Position numbers and translations under genes: made by a program
Part shown: positions 250-55,043 of the stretch, in pieces
Position numbering within the stretch: position 1 is the stretch's first letter
Layout of the letters: each line of letters starts with the position of its first letter
Assembly: GCA_024278075.1 (NCBI GenBank)
Contig: JAJRTW010000155.1
Coordinates: forward strand, 4,191-68,190
From: Bacteroidota bacterium
Lineage (GTDB): Bacteria; Bacteroidota; Ignavibacteria; Kapaibacteriales; UBA2268
Length of the DNA: 64,000 bases
Reading direction: 5' to 3'
Notes under the pieces: generated by a model
What the model was told of the DNA's origin: nothing
Database searches by the model: none
The model's input: only the letters and a program-made list of their open reading frames with translations

Positions 250-770
250 GAAAAATAAATCGCTTACGAAATGTCATTCTGAGCCCATCGGCAGTCTATC
301 CTGAGCCCTTCGGCCTGGCTCTGGATAAACTATGTCGGAGGACTCTGGATAAACTCCGCGATGAATCTATAACTTTATACATTTTAAGTGTTTATAGATT
401 CTTCACTACGCTCCGACATAAATGTCCGAAGTACTGTTAAATTACAATCGAAATATAAAACGTCCCGTCGGTTGTTACAACTGGCAAAATACAACAGCTT
501 CTAAACACGCCGGTTGTAACATCCGGCTATATGAGAATATAAAAGGCTTTTGAATAAATTGCGAATATTTACCAGTAGTGTCCGGTTAAAAATGAGAACC
601 ACTCATAATATGTACCTGAATATTATGACTTGTCATTGCAGAACTCGTTTCAGAATCCAGTATTCACGGGCTATGTGGTCATATTGAGATGGATACCGGA
701 TTCCCGATAGCGGGATTACTTCCCAATACGGGAATTCGCTGGGCTCAACAAGTCCGGTATAACATGATTT
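250..770. repeat. Composite intergenic repeat element copy E1 (MITE/REP-like) between cheA and cheB
   Basis: It contains a 'gtcggttgttacaactggc' hairpin module (466-485) and a ~185-bp module (574-757). That module recurs inverted at 10611-10822 and its terminus 'agtagtgtccggttaa' recurs at 16227-16244. Internal direct repeats are 'ctctggataaact' x2 and 'ctgagccc[at]tcggc' x2. Confidence 0.6.
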
Positions 771-909
771 AATATTATATTTCACTAATTCAAAAATTGC
801 ATCCATAATGGCACACTATAGGCCAAAATGGAGTTTAATGCTGCAAATATCACAAATTGACTGATTGTTAACCGAACACTTGTAGCTGCAATTATTTACA
901 TAAAATTAT

Positions 910-8350: not shown

Positions 8351-8418
8351 ATTATTAATGTCCGGTTATAGATGAGAGACGTTCGTGGTTTATTTCTTGA
8401 TTTCCTTTGCCTGTCATT

Positions 8419-8572
8419 CAGAACTATTCAATAGCCACGTGCTTTAGCTCGTGGAAGCCCAAATCCCCGAATTAAAACTCGGAGCTATATATTCCTTCAT
8501 ACTTCAATAGCCATGTGCTTTAGCTCGTGGAAGCCCAAATCCCCGAATTAAAACTCGGGGCTATAAATCTTT
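8419..8572. repeat. Tandem direct repeat, 2 x ~77 bp
   Basis: Units 'ttcaatagcca[ct]gtgctttagctcgtggaagcccaaatccccgaattaaaactcgg[ag]gctata' at ~8428 and ~8505 are ~97% identical. Each has an inverted repeat ccacg...cgtgg. Confidence 0.8.
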
Positions 8573-8605: not shown

Positions 8606-10297
8606 ATGAAAAAAATATTAAAATATAAACTAACTCTGCTTATTATAATATGTTCTTGCGCCAATCCGCAGCCACCGTCGGGCGGCCCGGCAGATAAAAC
8701 TCCACCGGAAATAGTGGCGTTCGAACCTGCCAGCGGAGTTCTGAACTTCAAAGGCGGTTCGATCATTATCGAATTTAGTAAATATATGAACAAAAGCAAG
8801 GTAAGGGAAAATATTTTTATCTCGCCGTCGGCCAAACTTGATTTCGATTGGAGTGGCAAAGAGCTTGGAATTGAATTTCTTGAAGAACTCAGCCCGGACA
8901 AGACTTATGCCCTGACGCTGGGCACTGGCTACTCGGATTTGAAAGGCAATAAACCCACCGAAGCCTTCACTTTGATTTTTTCGACCGGAAATGTAATTGA
9001 TTCCGGAACCATTAAAGGAAAATTATTCGACGCCACGCCTTCCGGCATATATATCTATGCCTACAAAATCGACAGCATGAACGTTGATACTTTCGACATC
9101 AGGAACAACAAACCGAATTATTGGACGCAGATTGGCACGAATGGCAATTTCCTGATTATGGCTTTGAAGGATGGCACTTATAGGTTAATAGCTATCCGCG
9201 ACCAGTTCAAGGACGAGATTTACTCCGAGGGGGCTGATGCGTTTGGCGCCCCCGTCCGGGATGTTACAGTAATAAATGGCTCCGCACCGGAAGTTAAATT
9301 AAAAATCGGACCGCCGATAGACATTATTAAGCCTCAGTTATACACTGCATATTCAACATCTGACAGGTCAATAGAAGTTTCCTTCAGCGAAGCAATCGAC
9401 CCTTCGTCATTATCGAAGAACTCATTTGTTATAAGTGATTCAGCCGGAAGCCAACTCCGCGCCATAAATTCCCTGTATCCGGATATTGAGAATAAAAGCA
9501 AAATAATAGTTTTCGCTTCCGGGCCGCTGGATACCGCTGTCAAGTGGAAGTTAACAGCCTTGGCCAATGCGGAGAACTGCCCGCGGGACACTATAGGGTT
9601 CTGCATAGACGACACTGCAAATACGGCTTATTTTTTCAGTGACACGTCTATTGATTCTACTCTTCCCTCTGTCATATCATCGCCTTTCCCGGATAGCACT
9701 TATGATTTGCCGATCAATCAACAATTCGAATTTATTTTTAATATGAGCGTAGCCGAAGAGAATTTTAAGGACAGAATCAAATTAATAAAGTCAGCAGATT
9801 CTTCAACGGCCGGCTTTGACATCAATTTTATCAGTGGCAATGATTTTGAATTAATTCCTTAGGAGTTTCTCGAGCCTGACACCTGGTACCGGGTTGAACT
9901 GCGGCTGGACTCACTTGCGGGCGGCAACGGAATGCTGGCAAAGGATTCGTTAATCAACTTGAACTTCCTGACACAGGATCAAAGAAAGTACAGTCAAATA
10001 GGCGGCACCTTGGCGGACTCATCTCTTTGCGACGGCCCTTATTATGTTATACTTAAGGCAAAAAGCGGAAATAAGGCAATCACCGCAAAAGTAGCCGACG
10101 GTGGCAGCTGGGAATTCAAAGCATTACCGGTCGGGATTTATAGTTTCGAAATATTTTGCGATTCCGATGGCAATGGCATCTATAGCTTTGGCAATGCCAG
10201 CCCTTTTGAATTCGGCGAAAGATTTTCCGCAATCGAGCAGGAAATCGAAGTAAAAGCCAGGTGGGAAGTCGAGAACATCAAATTAATCTTTAAATAA
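8606..10297 (+). pseudogene. Ig-like (SbsA-type) domain lipoprotein, interrupted by an in-frame amber codon at 9860-9862
   Basis: ORFs 8606..9862 and 9932..10297 are in the same frame, separated only by a TAG. Translation reads sensibly through it (..NDFELIP*EFLEPDTWYRVELRLD..). Lipoprotein signal 'LLIIICSCANP' and 'PADKTPPEIV' Ig-like N-domain. Confidence 0.5.
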
Positions 10298-10339
10298 TTC
10301 TAATATGAATACAGTAGTGCATCATCTCATAATAAATTA

Positions 10340-10825
10340 ATATTTAACGTTCCGTCAGTTGTTACAACTGACGAATGACGAGAGTTTCTATATTGCCAGT
10401 TGTAACAACTGGCGAAAGCAAAGGTGTAACAAAGCTGGTGGCTTTGATACAAGGGTTAACATTGCAATTGTTTCTGAGATGCCGTATTAGTGTCCGGTTA
10501 AAATGCAGCCAATTTGTGATAATCGAAGTAATAAGCTCCTTTTTGGCCTATATTGTGCTATAGTGGATACAATTTTGAAATTAGCAAAAATAATATCTAA
10601 ACGTGTCATTCCGGACTTATTGAGCCCAGCGAATTCCCGTATTGGGAAGTAATCCCGCTATCGGGAACCCGGAATCCATCTCAATATGGCCACATAGCCC
10701 GCACATACTGGATTCTTCACTACGCCACAAGTGGCTTGCCATAGATGGCTTTGTTCAGAATGACAAGTCATAATATTCAGGTACATATTCTGAGTGTTTC
10801 TCTTTTTTTACCGGACACTACTAAT
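10340..10825. repeat. Composite intergenic repeat element copy E2 (contains inverted copy of the E1 185-bp module)
   Basis: Hairpins 'cagttgttacaactgacg' (10356) and 'ccagttgtaacaactggcg' (10398). A B-start fragment 'tattagtgtccggttaaaatg' is at 10486. The reverse complement of the E1 module spans 10611-10822. Flanked by the 12-bp direct repeat 'ctaatatgaata' at 10301 and 10821. Confidence 0.65.
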
Positions 10826-11695
10826 ATGAATAATATAAATCCGAATACACCCAAATCGAACAAAGATATTATCCTTGAAATTATTGCAACGGGAATTTCA
10901 AGATACTCGGCCAATCTTGAGCTGTGCAAAAAAGCGTTCTCCGAAGAATCCGTGCATGGCCTAAGGGTATCCATCCGGAGGCTAATAACCATTGTTCGTG
11001 TGATAAATAAAATAATCCCGAATGAAAATGTACCATCATTGCTTTCATCTTTTAAATCGCACCTAAAATTGTTCAATCCCCTGCGCGATACGCAAGTGAT
11101 GATGCTAAAGATAGAGGAAATGGCCCAAAGGCATCCGGCACTTGAAGTTTTCGGCTCCGAACTAAAAGAACGCGAAAAAAATTATATATTAGCTCTGAAA
11201 AAGGGAATTCAGCATTTGTCATTTTCCCGGATTCAGCCTGCTCTCGACGAAATGAATGAATCCTTAGGTGCGTCGGTTGTTTCCGGCAGCATTATTTTCG
11301 CCCATATAATTAATTCAATGAATTCGTCTTTCACAAAAGTTATTGAGCTTAATAATATTGCCACAAGCGATAACATGGAATCTTTGCATAAAGTCAGGCT
11401 TGCGTTCAAGAAGTTCCGCTACCGAGCCGAAGCTTTCACAAATATTATCAACTATCCGGAATGCAGGCGAAAGCAGCTTGGGAAATTCCAGGATACACTC
11501 GGGGCAATTCAGGATAATTCCGTACTGATGAAGAATATCGAAGAATTTTCCATTAACAATAATTTGGAAAAGGACTTCTTGCCGGCAATAATTGAATTAC
11601 GTGAGGAAGGGGTACTTTTGGTTAATAATTATTTCAGTAATTCGGATTTTATATTTAATTTTTGGTCATTGCCGCAACCGCCGGCGCTATCTTGA
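10826..11695 (+). CDS. CHAD domain-containing protein
   Basis: Motif 'VHGLRVSIRRLITIVRV' is typical of CHAD. The start was moved to the internal ATG (MNNINP...) because the longer ORF start lies inside the repeat element. Confidence 0.55.
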   Translation: MNNINPNTPKSNKDIILEIIATGISRYSANLELCKKAFSEESVHGLRVSIRRLITIVRVINKIIPNENVPSLLSSFKSHLKLFNPLRDTQVMMLKIEEMAQRHPALEVFGSELKEREKNYILALKKGIQHLSFSRIQPALDEMNESLGASVVSGSIIFAHIINSMNSSFTKVIELNNIATSDNMESLHKVRLAFKKFRYRAEAFTNIINYPECRRKQLGKFQDTLGAIQDNSVLMKNIEEFSINNNLEKDFLPAIIELREEGVLLVNNYFSNSDFIFNFWSLPQPPALS

Positions 11696-15198: not shown

Positions 15199-15807
15199 TT
15201 AATTGCCTTTGTTCTCAAAATGAACGAAATCAATAAGAAAGACTGCCCCAAGGAGCACAGCTTTAAGATTTGGGCCAACGGCTTCCTTGAATTGAATCCC
15301 AAAACTATCGGCGTCGGTAATTGCTTCTTTAACGAACCCGCCCCATTTTTTCCTCAATGTTCCGATTTCCAAGCCGCCTTTTGCTATGCTGAAAGTCCAG
15401 GGCTTCAGGGCCGGTGCGTCCAGCCGGCACATTTCATAGCCAAAATTATCAATTGCAACGTATTTTTTCCTTATCAATGCAAACTCCCACTTAACGGTTC
15501 CAAGCTTTTTATCATTGCTGTCAAACACGTAACATTCATGGAATAACCACTTGAAAGGCCGTTTGACTTTAAGGAGGATATTGCCGGATGAATCAAGGAT
15601 ATGGATTTCAAAAGAACGCATTGCTTTTAGAAACAACCTGCCCATGGCCGATCCGCCAACCTCGACGGCAAAGAATATCCTATTACCGGATTGATCGAAT
15701 ATTTCATATTTATTTTTCTGTTCGAATCCGGTCAGGATTTCGCCCCATTCCTTCACCTGGGAAATGCCAAATACCGATATACTGTCCAGAAATGTTAAAT
15801 CTGCCAT
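15199..15807 (-). CDS. Scramblase/LURP-one-related (tubby-like) family protein
   Basis: 202 aa. The pattern 'FEIHILDSSGNILLKVKRPFKWLFHECYVFD...LGTVKWEF' resembles the PLSCR/LOR fold. Weak call. Confidence 0.35.
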   Translation of the reverse strand: MADLTFLDSISVFGISQVKEWGEILTGFEQKNKYEIFDQSGNRIFFAVEVGGSAMGRLFLKAMRSFEIHILDSSGNILLKVKRPFKWLFHECYVFDSNDKKLGTVKWEFALIRKKYVAIDNFGYEMCRLDAPALKPWTFSIAKGGLEIGTLRKKWGGFVKEAITDADSFGIQFKEAVGPNLKAVLLGAVFLIDFVHFENKGN

Positions 15808-15984
15808 GTGGATATATTCACAGATTAATAAAAAAAACCTTTTTGATGATTATTCAACAATCAAATTAACAAAAAAGTTACCAAGCCGGAAATAAATCGT
15901 GCGTGCCCGAATGCGGCAGATATATGTTATGGAATAAAATAATTATAGAATAATAATATAGAATAAAATAATGGGATCTTCATT

Positions 15985-16244
15985 GCCAAGTCAGGTGTTA
16001 CACCTGACGTGCTTGAGCTGTCTTGTTTTGTCAGTTGTAACAACTGACGGTACATGGCAGGATGCAAACCTTTCAATCATTTGTAGGGGACGGTTCATAA
16101 CCGTCCCGAAATAATTGTCGTGTTGTTAGGGCAGGTTTGGAACCTGCCCCTACGATTCTTATTCTGTTATTGGCAACTTGCGATAACATAACGTAGTATT
16201 CGAGTATAAATTATGAGCCGCTCTTATTTTAACCGGACACTACT
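15985..16244. repeat. Repeat element copy E3: cluster of four perfect hairpins ending in the shared terminus 'ttttaaccggacactact'
   Basis: Hairpins tcaggtgttacacctga (15991), gtcagttgtaacaactgac (16030), gggacggttcataaccgtccc (16086) and agggcaggtttggaacctgcccct (16128). Flanked by the 18-bp perfect direct repeat 'tgttatggaataaaataa' (15915 and 16245). Confidence 0.65.
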
Positions 16245-16261
16245 GTTATGGAATAAAATAA

Positions 16262-16300
16262 AAATATAAATAAAAAATAAAAAATAAAAAATAAAAAATA
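16262..16300. repeat. Simple sequence repeat (aataaaa)n
   Basis: 'aaataaaaaataaaaaataaaaaataaaaaataaaat'. Confidence 0.8.
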
Positions 16301-16399
16301 AAATAATGGAATATTTTTGAGGAGTGCCGAATTTAACGACGGATGGAGGATGCAATCGTAAAAACAATAGTCATCGAATTATTCAGATGCTTCCTACTG

Positions 16400-17113
16400 T
16401 TAGAAATTCCTGAGCTTCCTGTAAATTTCGCCTTTATTGCTGATTTTCCTTAGGAATATCAAATTCCCAATGCCCCAGTATCTTAGAGGTTTCTTTAATT
16501 CATAATAGATGGTTCTTACAAAATTTCTGGGCGATTCGAATAGCTCGGATGTGAATTTGCTTCGATAAACAGGCCATGAGTCAATTTCATATAAAATTTT
16601 GTAGTCGTGGTTCCTGATAATATATGTAACAAGCTTATGGATTGCTTTTATATCGAGATCGTGGAATCCAATAATTCCATTTGCTTTCAATACCCTGTCT
16701 ATAAAAATAAAATCCAGCATCGACAGGCAAAACAAATGAGATGCATCGATGAATGCAAAATCCACGGGGCCGATATTTGGCAGAACGTTCTCCGGAAAGT
16801 CTTCCGAAAATTTAAACCTTCCGGCAAAACCTGCTTTTTTAACCATAGTCAATCCGCTATAGCCGTATTCTTGTTGATAAGGGTCGATTGCGTGATGGAA
16901 GCCAATTCCGTTGCCATGGATTGCCTGCAATATTGATAAAGTAGAAATTCCCTGCGCAAAACCCAGTTCGGCAGATTTCTCCGGCTTCGATCGCGGGACA
17001 ACTTCATAGAGTAATTCAGCCTCTGATTCCGAAATATTACTATCCAGTGGGAGTTGTTCGTTCTTATCATTCAGAACTTTTCTTGTCCGAAATATTTCAT
17101 CTAATATATTCAT
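16400..17113 (-). CDS. Class I SAM-dependent methyltransferase (TylF/MycF-like O-MTase family)
   Basis: 237 aa with motif 'ELGFAQGISTLSIL' and an Asp-rich region 'FAFIDASH'. Confidence 0.5.
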   Translation of the reverse strand: MNILDEIFRTRKVLNDKNEQLPLDSNISESEAELLYEVVPRSKPEKSAELGFAQGISTLSILQAIHGNGIGFHHAIDPYQQEYGYSGLTMVKKAGFAGRFKFSEDFPENVLPNIGPVDFAFIDASHLFCLSMLDFIFIDRVLKANGIIGFHDLDIKAIHKLVTYIIRNHDYKILYEIDSWPVYRSKFTSELFESPRNFVRTIYYELKKPLRYWGIGNLIFLRKISNKGEIYRKLRNF

Positions 17114-17541
17114 GTTGCGTTGTTGAAATCAGCACAGTGCGGCTACTCATTAAAAAATCTTGTCATTATATTGAACTTATTGTTAGCTCCCCCTGCGTGA
17201 ATTATATTGCTTAATGTTCTTTATGGTCGAGGCCCATTGTTTTATGGAAATCATTGTCCTTAAATGCCAGGGTGGTGAAACGATAAAATGCATAACTTGA
17301 ATTTTTAGTGCAAATATACTAAATGTAAGGCTGATAATTTCATCCCGGCCAACTTTTTGAGTAAACCCTAAATATTCAACTATAATAAAATGCGGCTTTT
17401 ATATTAATGTATTATTTTTCAGAATTCCTTAATTATGCTATATTGCAATATCAGAATAAATAAGTTGCTATAATTTTAACTTGACGTGTGGCGTTATTTT
17501 AGAAATCATTGATTTATTAAGAAACAGAACAGGAAAATATT

Positions 17542-24325: not shown

Positions 24326-24477
24326 ATAAACTATGAAAAACGTTTTTCATATATCGCTAATGCCTTACCAACAATACATATAAGCGGCTATGAAAAACGT
24401 TTTTCATACGTCTTTCTTGGATACATACCTATAATACATTATTATTGCAGCAAATGTAAAATATTGCTGTAATACTA

Positions 24478-25191
24478 ATGACCTACATTCAGACACCAGG
24501 GACATATTTATCATCCGACAGTTGTGACTGTTGCGAGGACGAGCAGATCGTTCTGCAGTCGCTTTCTTCATTGTCAGAGAATGATGATAGTACGCCGATT
24601 GATTATCCGTTCAAGGCTTTGGTTTCATGGGTGTTCGGTCAGCTTGGACATAGCTACTACCAAGCGATTGCAGAGATTGCCAGCCGAATTAATTACAACC
24701 GAGGTTTCAAATGCTATCCCTTTCAATGGGATATGCTGACAAAAGCCTGCTTCAGAAACGATGAAATTGAAATCGTAGTTAACACCTACGGGAATCTCGC
24801 CCTCAAAAAAATAATTCAGGAATACAGCGAAAAAAAATTATCAGAAGCCGAATTGAATGTCATTATTCAAACGGTGTCCGAAGTAAGTGGAAAACCGTTA
24901 GCAAGGGTTGAGCTTATTCTTAAAAATTTATTTTGGGCAACAAAGGACGGTTCGGTGAAATGGGATGCACTCTTGCGGCCAAATACTTATCAGTCGTATT
25001 ATGAAATGAGGACAGTCCCTGAAGAATGGGACAAATGCTTCTGGGATTGCAAACTAAAGAACGCTCTGTTTGGTTCGCTCAAATGGATATTTATTGTCGG
25101 CGGTATTGTCGGCGTTGCTTATGTATATCCAAAGCTGCCAAAACACTTGCAGCCTCATAGGAAATTGTTGAAAGGTAAAGGGGATAAATAA
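24478..25191 (+). CDS. Hypothetical C-tail-anchored protein, paralog 1 of pair
   Basis: 237 aa with a C-terminal TM 'WIFIVGGIVGVAYVY'. The central region aligns with the next gene (NYNRGFKCYPFQW..ILKNLFWATKDG vs NHNRGKKCYPIKF..ILKNMFWAIYDG). Confidence 0.5.
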   Translation: MTYIQTPGTYLSSDSCDCCEDEQIVLQSLSSLSENDDSTPIDYPFKALVSWVFGQLGHSYYQAIAEIASRINYNRGFKCYPFQWDMLTKACFRNDEIEIVVNTYGNLALKKIIQEYSEKKLSEAELNVIIQTVSEVSGKPLARVELILKNLFWATKDGSVKWDALLRPNTYQSYYEMRTVPEEWDKCFWDCKLKNALFGSLKWIFIVGGIVGVAYVYPKLPKHLQPHRKLLKGKGDK

Positions 25192-45950: not shown

Positions 45951-48900
45951 TTGAGCAACTGGAACCGCAAGTGGCCTCGCAAAGCCGATACAAAACCATC
46001 ATTAATGCGTGTCCTGAAAAGAATTCATAAACATTATATAGGATATGGTGCAGAGGCATTCAAATATAGTTTAGACGAATATATTAGGCTCTACTTGGAT
46101 TATAGGTTCCAGGGAAAGGGAATCAATAACTATAAAGGTGATATCGAATCAAGAGAATATATTGTAATGTATTACGGACTTGATACGCTCCCTGAGCCGT
46201 ATGCTTCATTGGTAAACGATTTTATTGGTCAAAGCAAGAATATATCATCTCCAACAATAAATTCAGGCAAGGACATGACATTAATGGAACAAGCACAGCA
46301 CAACTTCGAGAAAATAACGAAGCTGTATTCATTGGCCAAAGAGAAAGGGAAAATCAAACCTGATATGATCTCCGCTCTTGACAATGGATTTGAGTCTATT
46401 GGTGACTTGATTGGTGTGGTATATGAACCGGTAAATATTATAAACCCAGATAAATTAAAGAAAATCAACTATGCACCCGGCAATACGACAACAATTGAAA
46501 CGCCAAACGAATCCATAAAAGCAAAGTATGTGTTAGTGCCACTCATGGACTTAATAGAATCTAATGATCCGTATTCGTTTAAAAGGAACCCGGATTATCC
46601 TGAATTTTGCCAAACCAGGAATTATGCACAGACGAAAGCCGAACAAAATAAGGTAATTAGCTTTTCCAAAGATTTCAAACCGGAACATCTGATTAATAAT
46701 TCGCCGGACGCCACAACAGGCCCACCAATTATCACAAAAGAAGGGATCGTGCTTGGCGGAAATGGACGGGCAATGATTTTAAAGCGAATTCATCATAAAA
46801 AAGGTTTTGATGAGTATTCTCAATTATTAGAACGGAATTTAGAATCATTCGGATTTAGTCCAGGCTGTGCGGCCCACATGATTCTTGCCCGCATGATTGA
46901 TATTGACTATAAAAAATGTGCCGCATATAGTAATAAACTTAATCAATCGACTATGCAGGAACGGGACGCAGTGACACTCGGTATCGGCTATGCGAAGCAA
47001 ATTAGTGAACAGGATTATACAACACTCGCAAAAATATTTGAGAATTCCGAAGAATCAACTTTTTCGGCCACACTGAATAATGCCGTTTCGCAACGACAAA
47101 TCATTTCCGTACTGGAGAAGTCAGGGCTGATTACTCCACAAAACCGTACTCAATGGATTAGCGAAGGCACCGGCGAACTTTCCAAGCAAGGCCGTGCGAT
47201 ATTAGAATCCGTTCTTATCGGCTATATTATGCCGGATAAGGCATTGATGGAAGCGGCACAGAACTATACAAATAAATTAGTCAAGTCACTGCCATTATTG
47301 ATACAAATTCACAATATGTCCGGCACGTGGAATATAGTGCCGGATATAAAAACGGCTATCCGGGAAGAAGTTAAACGACGGCGTGCAGGTGCGACAAAGG
47401 CGGATTATTTACGGCAGGATGATATGTTCGCAAGTGGCAAATCGGATATTGTGCCGGAGAATGTTCAATTAGTTTGGAAAGCCCTGGACGGTGGGGTATT
47501 GCAATTCCGTGATTTCCTCAAGAAATACATTCGCACGGCAAACAATGAAATGTCCGGCGGCTCGATGTTCGGCGAATCCAAAGTAAAATCAATCGACGTT
47601 CTTCGCAAACACATTAGCAATACAGGACTTGGTGATAATATGTCATTAATGCAACAAGCACAGCAGCAGTTCGAGAAAATAACGAAGCTGTATTCATTGG
47701 CCAAAGAGAAGGGGAAAATCAAGTCTGATATGATCTCCGCTCTTGACAATGGATTTAAGTCTATCGGCGAATTGATTGGTGTGGTGTATGAGCCGGTGGT
47801 AAAGACAAGGACACGGGAGTGGGCTTTGATAATGAGTATTCTGGACACACATGAATTTTGCATGCATAAATCAAATTCTTCACAAAGAGAACGTAAAGAA
47901 TGCAGAGAATTAAACGAGTCCCGACAAAAGGAATTGTTAATACTAACATTGACAAAACCAATTAAGCCCATAATGGATATAACAGATTTTAGTAAAATTG
48001 AGGAAACAGTATATAATATATTATATGCCCGCAGACCTAATACTATAATATCACAGTTAAAGAAATATAGGATAAATCAAAAGCTAACTGATGAAATGAT
48101 TCTTGACGTTACGGCTATATATATGTCCGGTGAAACAAGCCGAAATCAGCCGATATTCCATCGCAAAGTAGATGCTTTAATGAAGCAAAAGAAGAAGAAT
48201 ATTAGACTATGGAATAAGATGAGAGCTTATCTCCCTACTCTTGGTACGACCGATAATACATTATGGGACATAGCATTTAAGGAAAAAGGCGATATAGTAT
48301 CGAGACATGGAGAGGAGATAATCTTTTCACCAACTTATGAAGAACTTATTTATTGGATATATGAATATAGTGATATAAAGCCAAAAGCTGAGACAGTTCC
48401 CAAACCACAGGAAAAGAAAACGGAGACTAAAACAAATAACAACAAATTCCCGTTCCCTGGCGATGCAATAAAAAAGACTGAATTTGATAAATGGTTCGAG
48501 ACTGCCGAAAGGAACTACAAAGCTAAAGATTTAAGTTATTCTGCATTCCAGGAATTGGATGAAATGTTCGCTCCCATAGGTGAAGACGACCAGAAGGCCA
48601 TTGTTCAATATCTGTTCGCCAATGCACCGGACAAACTTAAGAAATTAGTAATGTATGGTAAAAAAGCAGCAACCACTGGTTGGTGGGAAGCTGATAATAT
48701 GAGTAAAAATGCACCTCCGACAAGTGATTTCGACGCAGGAAAAGATATTCCTGCTGAATTCCAAAAACATAGACGAATCAAAATTGTTGACTATGAATTG
48801 AAACCGGACAATGAAAATCTTTGGGGAATTATAGGAACAAGCATCAGTACAGATGTTCACCGCCCCCCAATGAATGGGGCTGAGTTTAATGATAAAGGTG

Positions 48901-50381
48901 TCGTAACAACTGACAGCTACCGTATCGCATTCATCCCGGGCAAAGTATCGAAAGTCAAAGAAGCAAAAATATTCAAAGAGACTAATTCTTATGGCCGAGA
49001 AAAGATTCATCCCGTCTATCACCCTGACGGCAGCTTTATTGATGAAACATTTGCACCCTGGGAAAGTGTTATTCCTAATATATCAACTACGATTGCAACG
49101 GCTAATACTCAGGAATTATTAAACCAATTATATACTTATAAATATTGGTTCCGTTGGGTATATCGAATTGGAAATGGCTATACAGCACCTGTGGTTATTA
49201 ATTTTGATGGCAATAAAAGAATGTCATTCAACCCGGATTATATGCTTGATGCTGTTACATTTATGGCAAAGTTAGGAGTTGAAACAATCTATTTCCAGGT
49301 TGACATGAGCAAACCTGAAGATGCACCTACTAAGCCATTAATTCTAATAGGTAATAAGAATGCTACCGCAAGTGATTGCAAAGTCCCGTTCCATTTAATT
49401 ATGCCTATACGATTAGATAATGAAGATTATCCCGATACACTGATTTATACCCGTATAGGTGCTGAACCTGGGAATGTAGGGCTGTCTGATGAACTATCAA
49501 TGAATGCCGATCCTTTGCAAATAGCATTATTCGACGATCAGAGAACGCCCGGCAACATCAGTAGCCTCGGCGACGACATTCAACCAAACGACATTCAGCC
49601 GATTGAAGAATTACAACCATTGCAACCGATTACTCCGATTGCGACTACGGGCGGGGATCAAGCAGCCTCAATAAACAACAGCGAAGTCCCCGACCCGGAT
49701 TATATTCCGTTCGACGATCCGAGGCATAATGTACTGCCTGAATTAGCAACGGCACAGGATATATCCAGTCAGGTATTTAGTAGCAAACCGTTGAAACTTG
49801 GCCGCACCCGAATATTGTTCGACAATATGTTGGATGATGCTAATATGTTAATCTACGGGCCAAGAGGCGAAGGCAAAACTACGTTTGCATTGCAATACAT
49901 AAACGATCTATCGAAAAACGGCGATGTATTATATGTAATGACCGAAGAGGGTATAAGCACACGATTGAAAGAACGGCTCCGGTGGAATAAAATAAATGCA
50001 AAAAATATCAGCTTCCTCGAAACAAGAGACTTCCACATCCTGAGAGAATATCTCGATTCTGGCAATTATAAATTTGTAGTGATTGATTCGCATAACAAAA
50101 TCGAAGGGGCTACTCAAAAACAAATCATCGAATTGCTTGATGAATATTCTAATATATCTTTTGTTATCATTGCACGGATGGACAAAGAAGCAAAAATATA
50201 CAGAGGTGATTCAGATTGGGAATATGACGTTGATACTGTTGTGAAACTCGAAAAAGGGAATGCAACAACTATTAAACACAGAGACGGCCCGTCAGGTAAG
50301 ATAATGCGGGTACTCCCAAGCAAAGCATGGGGACAATTAAATAATTCGCAATTAATAAATTCAAATGTTAAATCAGCATAA
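45951..50381 (+). CDS. Giant 1476-aa multidomain protein: ParB-like N-region (tentative), intragenic duplicated segment, C-terminal RecA/DnaB-like P-loop ATPase
   Basis: Walker A 'LIYGPRGEGKTTFA' and Walker B 'KFVVIDSHNK'. 'ITKEGIVLGGNGRAMILKRI' resembles the ParB GxxRxxA motif. A 155-nt near-identical duplication lies at 46270-46445 and 47634-47810. Confidence 0.55.
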   Translation: MSNWNRKWPRKADTKPSLMRVLKRIHKHYIGYGAEAFKYSLDEYIRLYLDYRFQGKGINNYKGDIESREYIVMYYGLDTLPEPYASLVNDFIGQSKNISSPTINSGKDMTLMEQAQHNFEKITKLYSLAKEKGKIKPDMISALDNGFESIGDLIGVVYEPVNIINPDKLKKINYAPGNTTTIETPNESIKAKYVLVPLMDLIESNDPYSFKRNPDYPEFCQTRNYAQTKAEQNKVISFSKDFKPEHLINNSPDATTGPPIITKEGIVLGGNGRAMILKRIHHKKGFDEYSQLLERNLESFGFSPGCAAHMILARMIDIDYKKCAAYSNKLNQSTMQERDAVTLGIGYAKQISEQDYTTLAKIFENSEESTFSATLNNAVSQRQIISVLEKSGLITPQNRTQWISEGTGELSKQGRAILESVLIGYIMPDKALMEAAQNYTNKLVKSLPLLIQIHNMSGTWNIVPDIKTAIREEVKRRRAGATKADYLRQDDMFASGKSDIVPENVQLVWKALDGGVLQFRDFLKKYIRTANNEMSGGSMFGESKVKSIDVLRKHISNTGLGDNMSLMQQAQQQFEKITKLYSLAKEKGKIKSDMISALDNGFKSIGELIGVVYEPVVKTRTREWALIMSILDTHEFCMHKSNSSQRERKECRELNESRQKELLILTLTKPIKPIMDITDFSKIEETVYNILYARRPNTIISQLKKYRINQKLTDEMILDVTAIYMSGETSRNQPIFHRKVDALMKQKKKNIRLWNKMRAYLPTLGTTDNTLWDIAFKEKGDIVSRHGEEIIFSPTYEELIYWIYEYSDIKPKAETVPKPQEKKTETKTNNNKFPFPGDAIKKTEFDKWFETAERNYKAKDLSYSAFQELDEMFAPIGEDDQKAIVQYLFANAPDKLKKLVMYGKKAATTGWWEADNMSKNAPPTSDFDAGKDIPAEFQKHRRIKIVDYELKPDNENLWGIIGTSISTDVHRPPMNGAEFNDKGVVTTDSYRIAFIPGKVSKVKEAKIFKETNSYGREKIHPVYHPDGSFIDETFAPWESVIPNISTTIATANTQELLNQLYTYKYWFRWVYRIGNGYTAPVVINFDGNKRMSFNPDYMLDAVTFMAKLGVETIYFQVDMSKPEDAPTKPLILIGNKNATASDCKVPFHLIMPIRLDNEDYPDTLIYTRIGAEPGNVGLSDELSMNADPLQIALFDDQRTPGNISSLGDDIQPNDIQPIEELQPLQPITPIATTGGDQAASINNSEVPDPDYIPFDDPRHNVLPELATAQDISSQVFSSKPLKLGRTRILFDNMLDDANMLIYGPRGEGKTTFALQYINDLSKNGDVLYVMTEEGISTRLKERLRWNKINAKNISFLETRDFHILREYLDSGNYKFVVIDSHNKIEGATQKQIIELLDEYSNISFVIIARMDKEAKIYRGDSDWEYDVDTVVKLEKGNATTIKHRDGPSGKIMRVLPSKAWGQLNNSQLINSNVKSA

Positions 50382-53434: not shown

Positions 53435-53500
53435 AACTTTTTTTTGGAATGCAGGCAGGATTTGAACCTGCGTAACGCCGCCCGTTCTGCATTCGAGGGG
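53435..53500 (-). repeat. tRNA 3'-end-like element A (T-arm 'gcaggttcaaatcctgc' + acceptor-like inverted repeat gaatgcag/ctgcattc)
   Basis: Minus strand: gaatgcag-aacgggcggcgttac-GCAGG-TTCAAAT-CCTGC-ctgcattcc. It is too short (~48 nt) to be a tRNA. About 90% identical to the element at 54978-55043. Confidence 0.6.
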
Positions 53501-54977: not shown

Positions 54978-55043
54978 TGAACTCGATTTGGGATGCAGCC
55001 AAGATTTGAACCTGCGTAACGCCGACCGCTCTGCATTCTGTAG
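54978..55043 (-). repeat. tRNA 3'-end-like element B (copy of element A)
   Basis: 'gggatgcagccaagatttgaacctgcgtaacgccgaccgctctgcattc' is about 90% identical to element A, with the same 'gaact' leader. Confidence 0.6.

Follow-up and report, generated by a model that had tools for sequence, protein, structure and literature searches.

A hairpin cluster upstream of a scramblase-like gene is probably a decayed IS4-type MITE enclosing REP-like palindromes

The hairpin block lies in a 592-bp spacer (15808-16399) between two minus-strand genes of the window, i.e., the whole 64-kb stretch of DNA analyzed here. It is indeed positioned upstream of a scramblase-like gene, as stated in the original prediction, and the other neighbor codes for a methyltransferase. 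The genes and the features first apparent in the spacer are as follows:

15199-15807, minus strand: scramblase-like gene (Pfam Scramblase, 1.5e-42)
16400-17113, minus strand: class-I methyltransferase gene (Methyltransf_24)
15990-16008: perfect palindrome GTCAGGTGTTACACCTGAC
16030-16048: perfect palindrome GTCAGTTGTAACAACTGAC
16087-16107: perfect palindrome GGGACGGTTCATAACCGTCCC
16129-16149: perfect palindrome GGGCAGGTTTGGAACCTGCCC
16167-16190: fifth, imperfect hairpin TGTTATTGGCAACTTGCGATAACA, present in the folds of both strands
16255-16303: microsatellite (AAAATAA) x 7.3 (TRF), in the right flank and outside the element delimited below

The four perfect palindromes fall within 160 bp (15990-16149), as had been predicted. 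Across the whole 64-kb window, perfect hairpins with stems of 7 bp or more number 51; hence, about 0.13 would be expected per 160 bp as against the four observed (Poisson P about 1e-5). The flanking 18-mer TGTTATGGAATAAAATAA is exact at both 15925-15942 and 16244-16261, with no third site in the window even when up to two mismatches are allowed (shuffled sequences give 0.05 matches). A second partial duplication, AATAAAATAATGG[GA]A, recurs at 15961-15975 and 16298-16312 with a 14/15 match. Both of these predicted duplications are therefore present; the predicted microsatellite is there too, but its copy number is 7.3 rather than five.

The predicted folding of the block is very stable (z-scores: plus strand, -6.3; minus strand, -6.5), and its terminal 52 nt also self-fold. 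Such stability in a block placed between two genes might indicate a transcribed array of structured non-coding RNA hairpins regulating the scramblase-like or the methyltransferase gene, which was one of the options initially put forward. However, the two strands fold equally well, a symmetry to be expected of DNA palindromes. A search of the whole window against Rfam 15 at the gathering threshold gave no match, and a relaxed search of 15700-16500 returned only noise at E-values up to 10, the best hit scoring 19 bits as compared to a gathering threshold of 62. None of the hairpins resembles an intrinsic terminator, and the perfect stems leave no covariation to test. Moreover, three related genomes (L111, L118 and L119) lack the block in the orthologous spacer, as does L112 in the 257 nt upstream of the gene. 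Against this evidence, an RNA array is very improbable. A tRNA/tmRNA scan detected none, and no ORF of at least 50 aa is listed as overlapping 15936-16245.

The right end of the block is more telling. The 18-nt sequence TTTTAACCGGACACTACT at 16227-16244, which had been singled out as a family terminus, recurs three more times in the window with at most one mismatch (574-591, minus strand; 10486-10503, minus strand; 10805-10822, plus strand), while shuffled sequences give 0.07 copies. In a scan of one genome per species, AGTAGTGTCCGGTWAAAA is exact in more than 110 contigs among the matches listed, coming from Bacteroidota, Chlorobiaceae, Ignavibacteria, Burkholderiales, Nitrospirota, Desulfobacterota, Acidobacteriota, Verrucomicrobiota and others. 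Among these listed matches it very often lies 120-140 nt from the end of the contig, which is the signature of a multi-copy insertion sequence. Three of the compared loci (L021, L043 and L084) show two facing copies of the repeat 1.3-1.5 kb apart with a single ORF of 408-413 aa between them. Its product combines the Pfam domains DUF4372 and DDE_Tnp_1 and scores 262.7 and 212.3 bits against the NCBIfam model NF033592 "IS4 family transposase" (cut-off 115). The stretch 16227-16245 is identical to the repeats of these three loci, which identifies TTTTAACCGGACACTACT as the terminal inverted repeat (TIR) of an IS4-family insertion sequence whose DDE transposase has about 410 aa.

Comparison of 117 ends by eye indicates that beyond the 18-mer only the neighboring C is near-constant. 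Directly outside the C…G ends, a perfect 9-bp direct repeat is found in 17 of the 32 inverted pairs of the compared loci, and these clean duplications are exactly 9 bp in all 17. Accordingly, elements of the IS group are bounded by C-AGTAGTG…CACTACT-G and duplicate 9 bp of their target. Short non-autonomous derivatives are numerous: the inverted pairs with a 9-bp duplication include MITEs of 92, 171, 183, 219, 284 and 385 bp. The nearest named relative of the transposase that we found, from plasmids, is ISAbe18, at about 40% amino-acid identity. Our literature search recovered neither a published name for the group nor a relevant paper containing the repeat sequence, and no full-length copy of the insertion sequence was found within the 64-kb window.

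With the terminus identified, the boundaries of the element can be considered in terms of the following features:

15927-15935: left 9-bp target-site duplication TTATGGAAT, inside the left 18-mer (15925-15942)
15936-15975: A/T-rich stretch at the expected site of the left repeat, with a 13-nt tandem repeat x3 (15934-15970; TRF)
16190-16245, minus strand: MITE end, in which ~35 nt of subterminal sequence precede the 18-nt inverted repeat (16227-16244), with G 16245 as the last base
16246-16254: right 9-bp target-site duplication TTATGGAAT, inside the right 18-mer (16244-16261)

Position 16245 is the last base of the terminus CACTACTG, and TTATGGAAT follows directly; this 9-mer has only the two copies given above in the 64 kb. 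As the interior lies to the left of this terminus, the hairpins are inside the element and the right 18-mer is flank, with its TG being the last two bases of the element. Since the single other copy of TTATGGAAT lies in the left 18-mer, the unusually long duplication that had been proposed breaks down into TG, an ordinary 9-bp target duplication at the expected offset and AAAATAA; the identity beyond the duplication consists of these seven A/T bases and loose low-complexity resemblance. The TG of the left 18-mer appears to be ancestral spacer, though the homology of the left flank with L111 is gapped and weak there. The implied element would thus span 310 bp (15936-16245). Two further MITE copies of the window, X1 and X2, have ends (at 573 and 10823, respectively) that align with its last ~55 nt, and the ~35-nt subterminal part, which is common to other MITE copies, holds a degenerate copy of the repeat in inverted orientation (16193-16217).

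The left end is less regular. No match to the inverted repeat was found to the left of the hairpins with up to four mismatches allowed, and with this repeat absent a two-ended MITE has to be reconstructed from one end and the duplicated 9-mer. As an IS4 MITE, the 310-bp element has the terminus and the 9-bp duplication and is small, non-coding, multi-copy and polymorphic, but it does not have repeats at both ends. Two further candidates were tried and rejected. As a left repeat, the G+C-rich patch GTGCGTGCCCG (15900-15910) can be aligned only if gaps are introduced, and no 9-mer adjacent to it matches. As an independent mini-MITE of two back-to-back repeats, the terminal 52 nt (16193-16245) have flanks that differ (GATAACATA and TTATGGAAT).

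The identity between the two 18-mers reaches 2 nt to the left and 7 nt to the right of the 9-mer, and together with the outer 14/15 match this is not accounted for by a plain 9-bp duplication. Within 15936-15975, the first 7 nt and the last ~14 nt resemble the right flank in a local alignment of the flanks. One might consider a complete element of an unconventional type whose insertion creates a long (18-50 bp) target duplication, for which the exact 18-mer and the second 14/15 block occur on both sides, the flanks align with a score of 51 (shuffles have a mean of 19 and a maximum of 36), and a duplication of ~22-40 nt also flanks a 1438-bp segment containing the block. Yet the right boundary is an IS4 terminus, a group whose 17 clean duplications are all of one length, and no other copy of such an element was seen. 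Moreover, the 18-mer itself contributes 36 of the 51 alignment points, the remainder being A/T-only low complexity. We hence regard insertion with a long duplication as highly unlikely.

Comparisons with related genomes bear on both the insertion and its timing. The window PepT shows about 70% identity to named Ignavibacteria and FCB proteins, its homologs indicating an uncultured genome of the FCB group that is Ignavibacteriota-like. In L111, whose scramblase is 81% identical to that of the window, pepT is directly beside the scramblase gene with a 271-bp spacer containing neither a methyltransferase gene nor hairpins, and the spacer of L119 is empty in the same way. In L118, a genome closely related to L111, a 261-bp MITE of this family sits elsewhere in that spacer, with flanking 9-mers that match at 7/9 positions. 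The presence of this copy where L111 and L119 are empty indicates that the MITE family is or was recently mobile and that the spacer is a landing zone. The absence of the block at this locus in L111, L118 and L119 bears out the proposal that it is inserted, transposon-derived DNA. The extra segment of the window relative to L111, L118 and L119 is larger than the block: it comprises 1438 bp (15931-17368), including the methyltransferase gene, and is flanked on both sides by ~22-40 nt of ancestral spacer. Because the target TTATGGAAT spans the left junction of this segment, the MITE probably arrived after it. In the more distant relatives L122 and L123 (PepT 80-82% identical), the 21 kb and 13 kb of sequence compared, respectively, contain no such repeats.

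A homolog of the methyltransferase, 81% identical, is encoded at another locus of the MAG that contains L111, beside secG. As a separate observation, the start codon of this homolog is preceded by two MITE right ends, at distances of 17 and 47 nt.

The palindromes themselves fall into two doublets, one headed by CGTC (hereinafter hp) and the other tagged with GTAG:

15990-16011, minus strand: REP-like palindrome hp2, CGTC-AGGTGT-A-ACACCT-GAC
16030-16051, minus strand: REP-like palindrome hp1, C-CGTC-AGTTGT-T-ACAACT-GAC, the conserved member of the doublet
16083-16107, plus strand: REP-like palindrome A, GTAG-GGGACGGTT-CAT-AACCGTCCC, with the GTAG unpaired
16129-16153, minus strand: REP-like palindrome B, GTAG-GGGCAGGTT-CCA-AACCTGCCC, inverted with respect to A

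The search of the window for further copies of the hairpins gave a split result: the hp doublet recurs, whereas the GTAG pair does not. The 21-mer of hp1 is found again at 10352-10372 and, with two mismatches, at 465-485, and the doublet as a whole, its 21-nt spacer conserved in part, is repeated at 465-529 and 10352-10413. Both recurrences are associated with other members of the MITE family:

10312-10823, plus strand: composite MITE of 512 bp, with a perfect 9-bp duplication ATATGAATA at 10303-10311 and 10824-10832
430-884, plus strand: family members, comprising the hp1/hp2 doublet (465-529) and MITE X1 (573-884)
about 430: possible degenerate repeat, recognized by eye only and more than four mismatches from the consensus

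From left to right, the composite MITE consists of a shortened left end (CAGTAGTG…CTCATAAT), the hp doublet, an internal repeat (10486-10503), an X-type body and the right repeat. Its X2 part (10486-10822) was tried as a simple nested insertion and rejected as the flanking 9-mers disagree at 9/9 positions. With no matching 9-mers around this inner part, the composite as a whole is the unit that last moved. The duplication around X1 matches only at 8/9 positions and is 6 nt out of register.

The hp doublet of the composite has the same polarity relative to the repeat as that in the hairpin block. All three doublets of the window place a T-centered before an A-centered unit and show one polarity relative to a repeat or repeat-like sequence, although at about 430 this depends on the by-eye repeat candidate, which lies beyond four mismatches from the consensus. 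Outside the window, the hp1 palindrome also occurs singly, as GTYCCGTCAGTTGTTACAACTGACG, in intergenic DNA of four metagenome contigs (L113-L116), in which no IS4 repeat was found near it.

The regular spacing of the two pairs (hp pair, 40 nt; GC-rich pair, 42 nt) raises the alternative of paired protein-binding operators, in which palindromes 40-43 bp apart would be bound by dimeric regulators. That the same hp doublet sits inside a mobile element (10312-10823), that the hp palindrome also appears at unrelated loci beside unrelated genes, and that the palindromes are not retained at the scramblase promoter in relatives make this exceedingly improbable. With four independent perfect palindromes and the same doublet in a mobile element, the anatomy likewise does not suit an integron attC site, and we rejected both candidates.

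Palindromes A and B have their tags pointing outward (an "HH" dimer) and their stems 21 nt apart. Their arms are 75% complementary over 28 nt and pair as one long hairpin in the MFE fold. The pair has the hallmarks of REPs: an unpaired GTAG, a stem in the range of 5-13 bp, a short loop and inverted units within 1-100 bp of each other. It has no second copy in the 64-kb window, the exact degenerate pattern occurs in none of 119 compared loci, and allowing up to six mismatches yields none in 12 loci. What links the GTAG pair to the MITE is its position alone. The hp units carry the CGTC tag but depart from the published stem, loop and tags-outward arrangement; since their stem and loop are unlike those of the published CGTC families, we term them REP-like rather than members of these families. 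The Pfam Y1_Tnp domain has no match in the 35 window ORFs scanned, all of them lying outside the phage-like cluster (24-50 kb). The earlier suggestion of an IS200/IS605-like hairpin element holds in that the palindromes are REP-like, i.e., of the RAYT-linked class, but fails at the terminus, which is an IS4 DDE repeat.

These observations leave two ways of relating the palindromes to the IS4 end. In one, they are chance neighbors: REP/REPIN palindromes spread by a RAYT (Y1, IS200/IS605-like) whose gene lies elsewhere in the genome gathered beside a solitary IS4 repeat in a permissive A/T-rich spacer and were never moved by an IS4 transposase. The good fit of the GC-rich pair to GTAG-tagged REP dimers (tag, 9-bp stem, 3-nt loop, tags outward, 21-nt spacer), the single hp palindrome without a nearby IS4 repeat in L113-L116, the lack of a left repeat in the putative MITE, and the fact that MITE X copies adjoin hp doublets in both orientations are all consistent with such an origin. 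However, the duplicated 9-mer brackets the hairpins together with the IS4 end, an hp doublet lies within a perfectly duplicated MITE (10312-10823), and the three window doublets share their polarity relative to the repeat or repeat-like sequence (by eye only at about 430). The GTAG pair being single-copy in the 64 kb and the lack of a Y1 transposase domain in the ORFs scanned also speak against it. We accordingly consider a chance neighborhood fairly unlikely.

In the other, which we favor as probable, the hairpin cluster is a decayed non-autonomous IS4-family MITE with REP-like palindromes that landed upstream of the scramblase-like gene. A DDE transposase supplied in trans from a full-length copy would have cut the element at its C-AGTAGTG…CACTACT-G ends and pasted it into the A/T-rich spacer, thereby duplicating the 9-bp target TTATGGAAT. 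The non-coding interior, with the GTAG-tagged inverted doublet and the CGTC-headed doublet, may have ridden as cargo between the transposon ends, as in the intact 512-bp copy with its hp doublet. The palindromes could nevertheless postdate the landing of the MITE. The left end would later have lost its inverted repeat, rendering the copy an immobile relic. As a guess at the manner of this loss, a break at the left end, e.g., upon abortive excision, might have been repaired by annealing of the left and right target copies with copying of the right flank, which would leave identity extending 7 nt further and resuming in part 40-50 nt on. A simpler possibility for the left end is an internal deletion combined with chance A/T-rich similarity.

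A more general version of the cargo idea is that REP-type palindromes, both GTAG-tagged and CGTC-headed, are carried and spread by IS4-family MITEs. Pointing toward it are the hp doublet in the duplicated 512-bp MITE, the presence of both palindrome types within the 9-bp duplication of the hairpin block, and a 186-bp MITE with the same ends in another phylum (L058), which encloses an inverted pair of canonical TGTC/CGTC-ATTCC…GGAAT REPs. In a strict scan, canonical CGTC REPs are found just inside the IS4 repeats at 2 of 56 non-redundant ends; given this low number, we make no claim of a general enrichment. This extension is offered as a rather doubtful possibility.

The object itself is ordinary: it belongs, in decayed form, to an IS4-type MITE family that is very widespread though unnamed. 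The hairpin array would thus amount to a dead MITE with REP-like palindromes, with no new RNA and no new transposition mechanism. Its value lies chiefly in the corrected annotation, and three lesser points may be of use. The 19-nt terminus CAGTAGTGTCCGGTWAAAA is the mark of an IS4 subgroup that is very widespread and apparently has no name, and it breaks metagenome assemblies in many phyla. That MITEs of this group can enclose REP-type palindromes hints at one route by which such palindromes travel. Locally, the insertion lies 130-440 bp upstream of the scramblase-like gene and downstream of the methyltransferase gene, and from this position between genes it may alter local transcription.

Among known systems, the element compares most directly with IS4-derived MITEs, with which it shares a terminal sequence equal to that of the autonomous insertion sequence, the 9-bp duplication, small size and the lack of an ORF. 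It further resembles them in the several copies in the window, the insertion polymorphism between relatives and the A/T-rich intergenic targets. It differs in that only one inverted repeat is recognizable and in that the interior consists of REP-like palindromes instead of an internally deleted transposase gene.

REP elements have been linked to IS200/IS605-like RAYT transposases. IS200/IS605 elements lack terminal inverted repeats, do not duplicate their target, and have a Y1 transposase and/or TnpB gene within them or close by. The present element is comparable to them in its hairpin-rich end regions and, conceptually, via the REP/RAYT link. In contrast, it has an IS4 repeat and a 9-bp duplication, and neither a Y1 nor a TnpB gene is found nearby, its neighbors being the scramblase-like and methyltransferase genes.

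A different kind of parallel is offered by a MITE of Porphyromonas gingivalis, which is reported to contain a minisatellite and represents a modular bacterial MITE with internal repeats (PMC4596501). The two are alike as MITEs of the Bacteroidota group built of short repeated modules, but they differ in transposase family and sequence.

In GTAG-tagged REPs forming "HH" dimers, the stem is mostly 6-9 bp and the loop 2-3 nt, frequently with the sequence CMA, and the two partners are separated by 20-100 bp (Di Nocera et al. 2013, PMC3733652). The GC-rich pair resembles the GTAG REPs and REPINs (PMC3733652; Bertels and Rainey, PMC3337134) in its unpaired GTAG, 9-bp G+C-rich stem and 3-nt loop, with one of its loops, CCA, fitting the published CMA (PMC3733652). 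It is similar as well in having inverted units with tags outward, 21 nt apart and foldable into a long hairpin. However, GTAG REPs are defined by a high copy number, while here there is one pair in 64 kb, with no RAYT gene seen among the 35 window ORFs, and it lies within the boundaries of a DDE-type transposon.

The CGTC REPs include dRS3 of Neisseria and RPE-4 and RPE-6 of Rickettsia and are reported in FCB-group bacteria (PMC3733652). They have a CGTC (or TGTC/CCTC) tag, stems of 8-9 bp starting with AT, and loops of 4-5 nt, and mostly form tags-outward dimers (PMC3733652). The hp units share with them the CGTC start, the occurrence as intergenic doublets and singletons, the FCB host and the lack of a dedicated transposase. 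In contrast, the hp stem following the tag is 6 bp (AGTTGT) and starts with AG, the loop is a single nucleotide, the tag itself is paired with GACG in some copies, and both hp tags of the block are on one strand. How CGTC repeats move without a dedicated transposase is a point left open by Di Nocera et al. 2013 (PMC3733652); if palindromes of this kind do travel as cargo of IS4-type MITEs, a DDE transposase would provide a mobility route for REP classes that lack a transposase of their own.

Three relatives (L111, L118 and L119) lack, in their scramblase-pepT spacers, the 1438-bp segment spanning 15931-17368, which comprises the hairpin cluster (15915-16262) together with the methyltransferase gene at 16400-17113. 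About 22-40 nt of ancestral spacer is present in duplicate, with one copy on each side of this segment. Among the four loci compared (L111, L118, L119 and L120), the methyltransferase of one relative adjoins secG, with two MITE ends lying shortly upstream of its ATG. The same scramblase-pepT spacer also harbors a polymorphic insertion: a 261-bp MITE occupies positions 1708-1968 of L118, a close relative, while the corresponding sites of L111 and L119 are empty. The 9-mers flanking this MITE are of the GATAACTT type and are equal at seven of nine positions.

The following related features are found elsewhere in the window:

about 430: candidate degenerate repeat, recognized by eye
465-529: doublet of hp palindromes (the CGTC-headed, REP-like hp1/hp2 pair)
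573-884: MITE X1
8354-8570: degenerate repeat ATTAATGTCCGGTTATAG, with four mismatches, and a hairpin array
10312-10823: composite MITE of 512 bp with a perfect 9-bp target duplication, ATATGAATA (10303-10832 as a whole)

The ORF at 9932-10297 has its stop codon on one side of the composite MITE, and a CHAD-domain gene starts on the other; at 10486-10503 the MITE contains a third, internal copy of the inverted repeat. The MITE copies X1 and X2 (10486-10822) lie in opposite orientations, whereas the hp doublets abutting each of them share the same orientation. A candidate target duplication flanking X1 matches at eight of nine positions, 6 nt out of register. The array at 8354-8570, situated in the spacer that separates divergent BrkB-like and Big_5 genes, again combines a single repeat with an array of hairpins: the degenerate repeat is followed by two 76-bp units in tandem, each with two hairpins (8427-8492 and 8503-8568, 95% identical).

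Separately, the region from about 24400 to 64000 of the window resembles a prophage or some other integrated element. It features a long gene cluster, entirely on one strand, with a 1476-aa ORF (45951-50381) among its genes. After the cluster come many small ORFs on the minus strand that lack Pfam matches; the ORFs that do have one comprise, among others, a DNA methylase, DUF5131 and an Imm5-like protein. The sign of the GC skew flips at about 51 kb. A 158-nt direct repeat within the 1476-aa ORF (46275-46432 and 47640-47797, 91% identical) is probably an internal protein repeat. Two identical copies of a 20-nt palindrome, TATGAAAAACGTTTTTCATA (24332-24351 and 24389-24408, 57 nt apart), lie just upstream of the gene cluster beginning at 24478 and have the appearance of a candidate operator. 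On the minus strand, a 52-nt repeat (53443-53494 and 54987-55038, 90% identical) resembles the 3′ half of a tRNA, with the T-arm GCAGGTTCAAATCCTGC and an acceptor end; ARAGORN called no tRNA in the window. These tRNA-like repeats could be att-like remnants of an integrated element.

The 18-nt IS4 repeat is widely distributed: among the matches listed, more than 110 contigs representing at least 10 phyla (L001-L110) carry it without a base change. Many of these listed matches lie about 120-140 nt from contig ends, indicating that this IS group often causes assemblies to break. In the literature searched, we found no name for the IS group with this repeat. The same IS4 ends also delimit a MITE in a Thermodesulfovibrionia MAG:

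L058 1760-1945: MITE of 186 bp

Enclosed within it are two canonical CGTC-type REPs in inverted orientation, members of the published class of short tagged palindromes (TGTC-ATTCCGGC… and CGTC-ATTCCCGC…).
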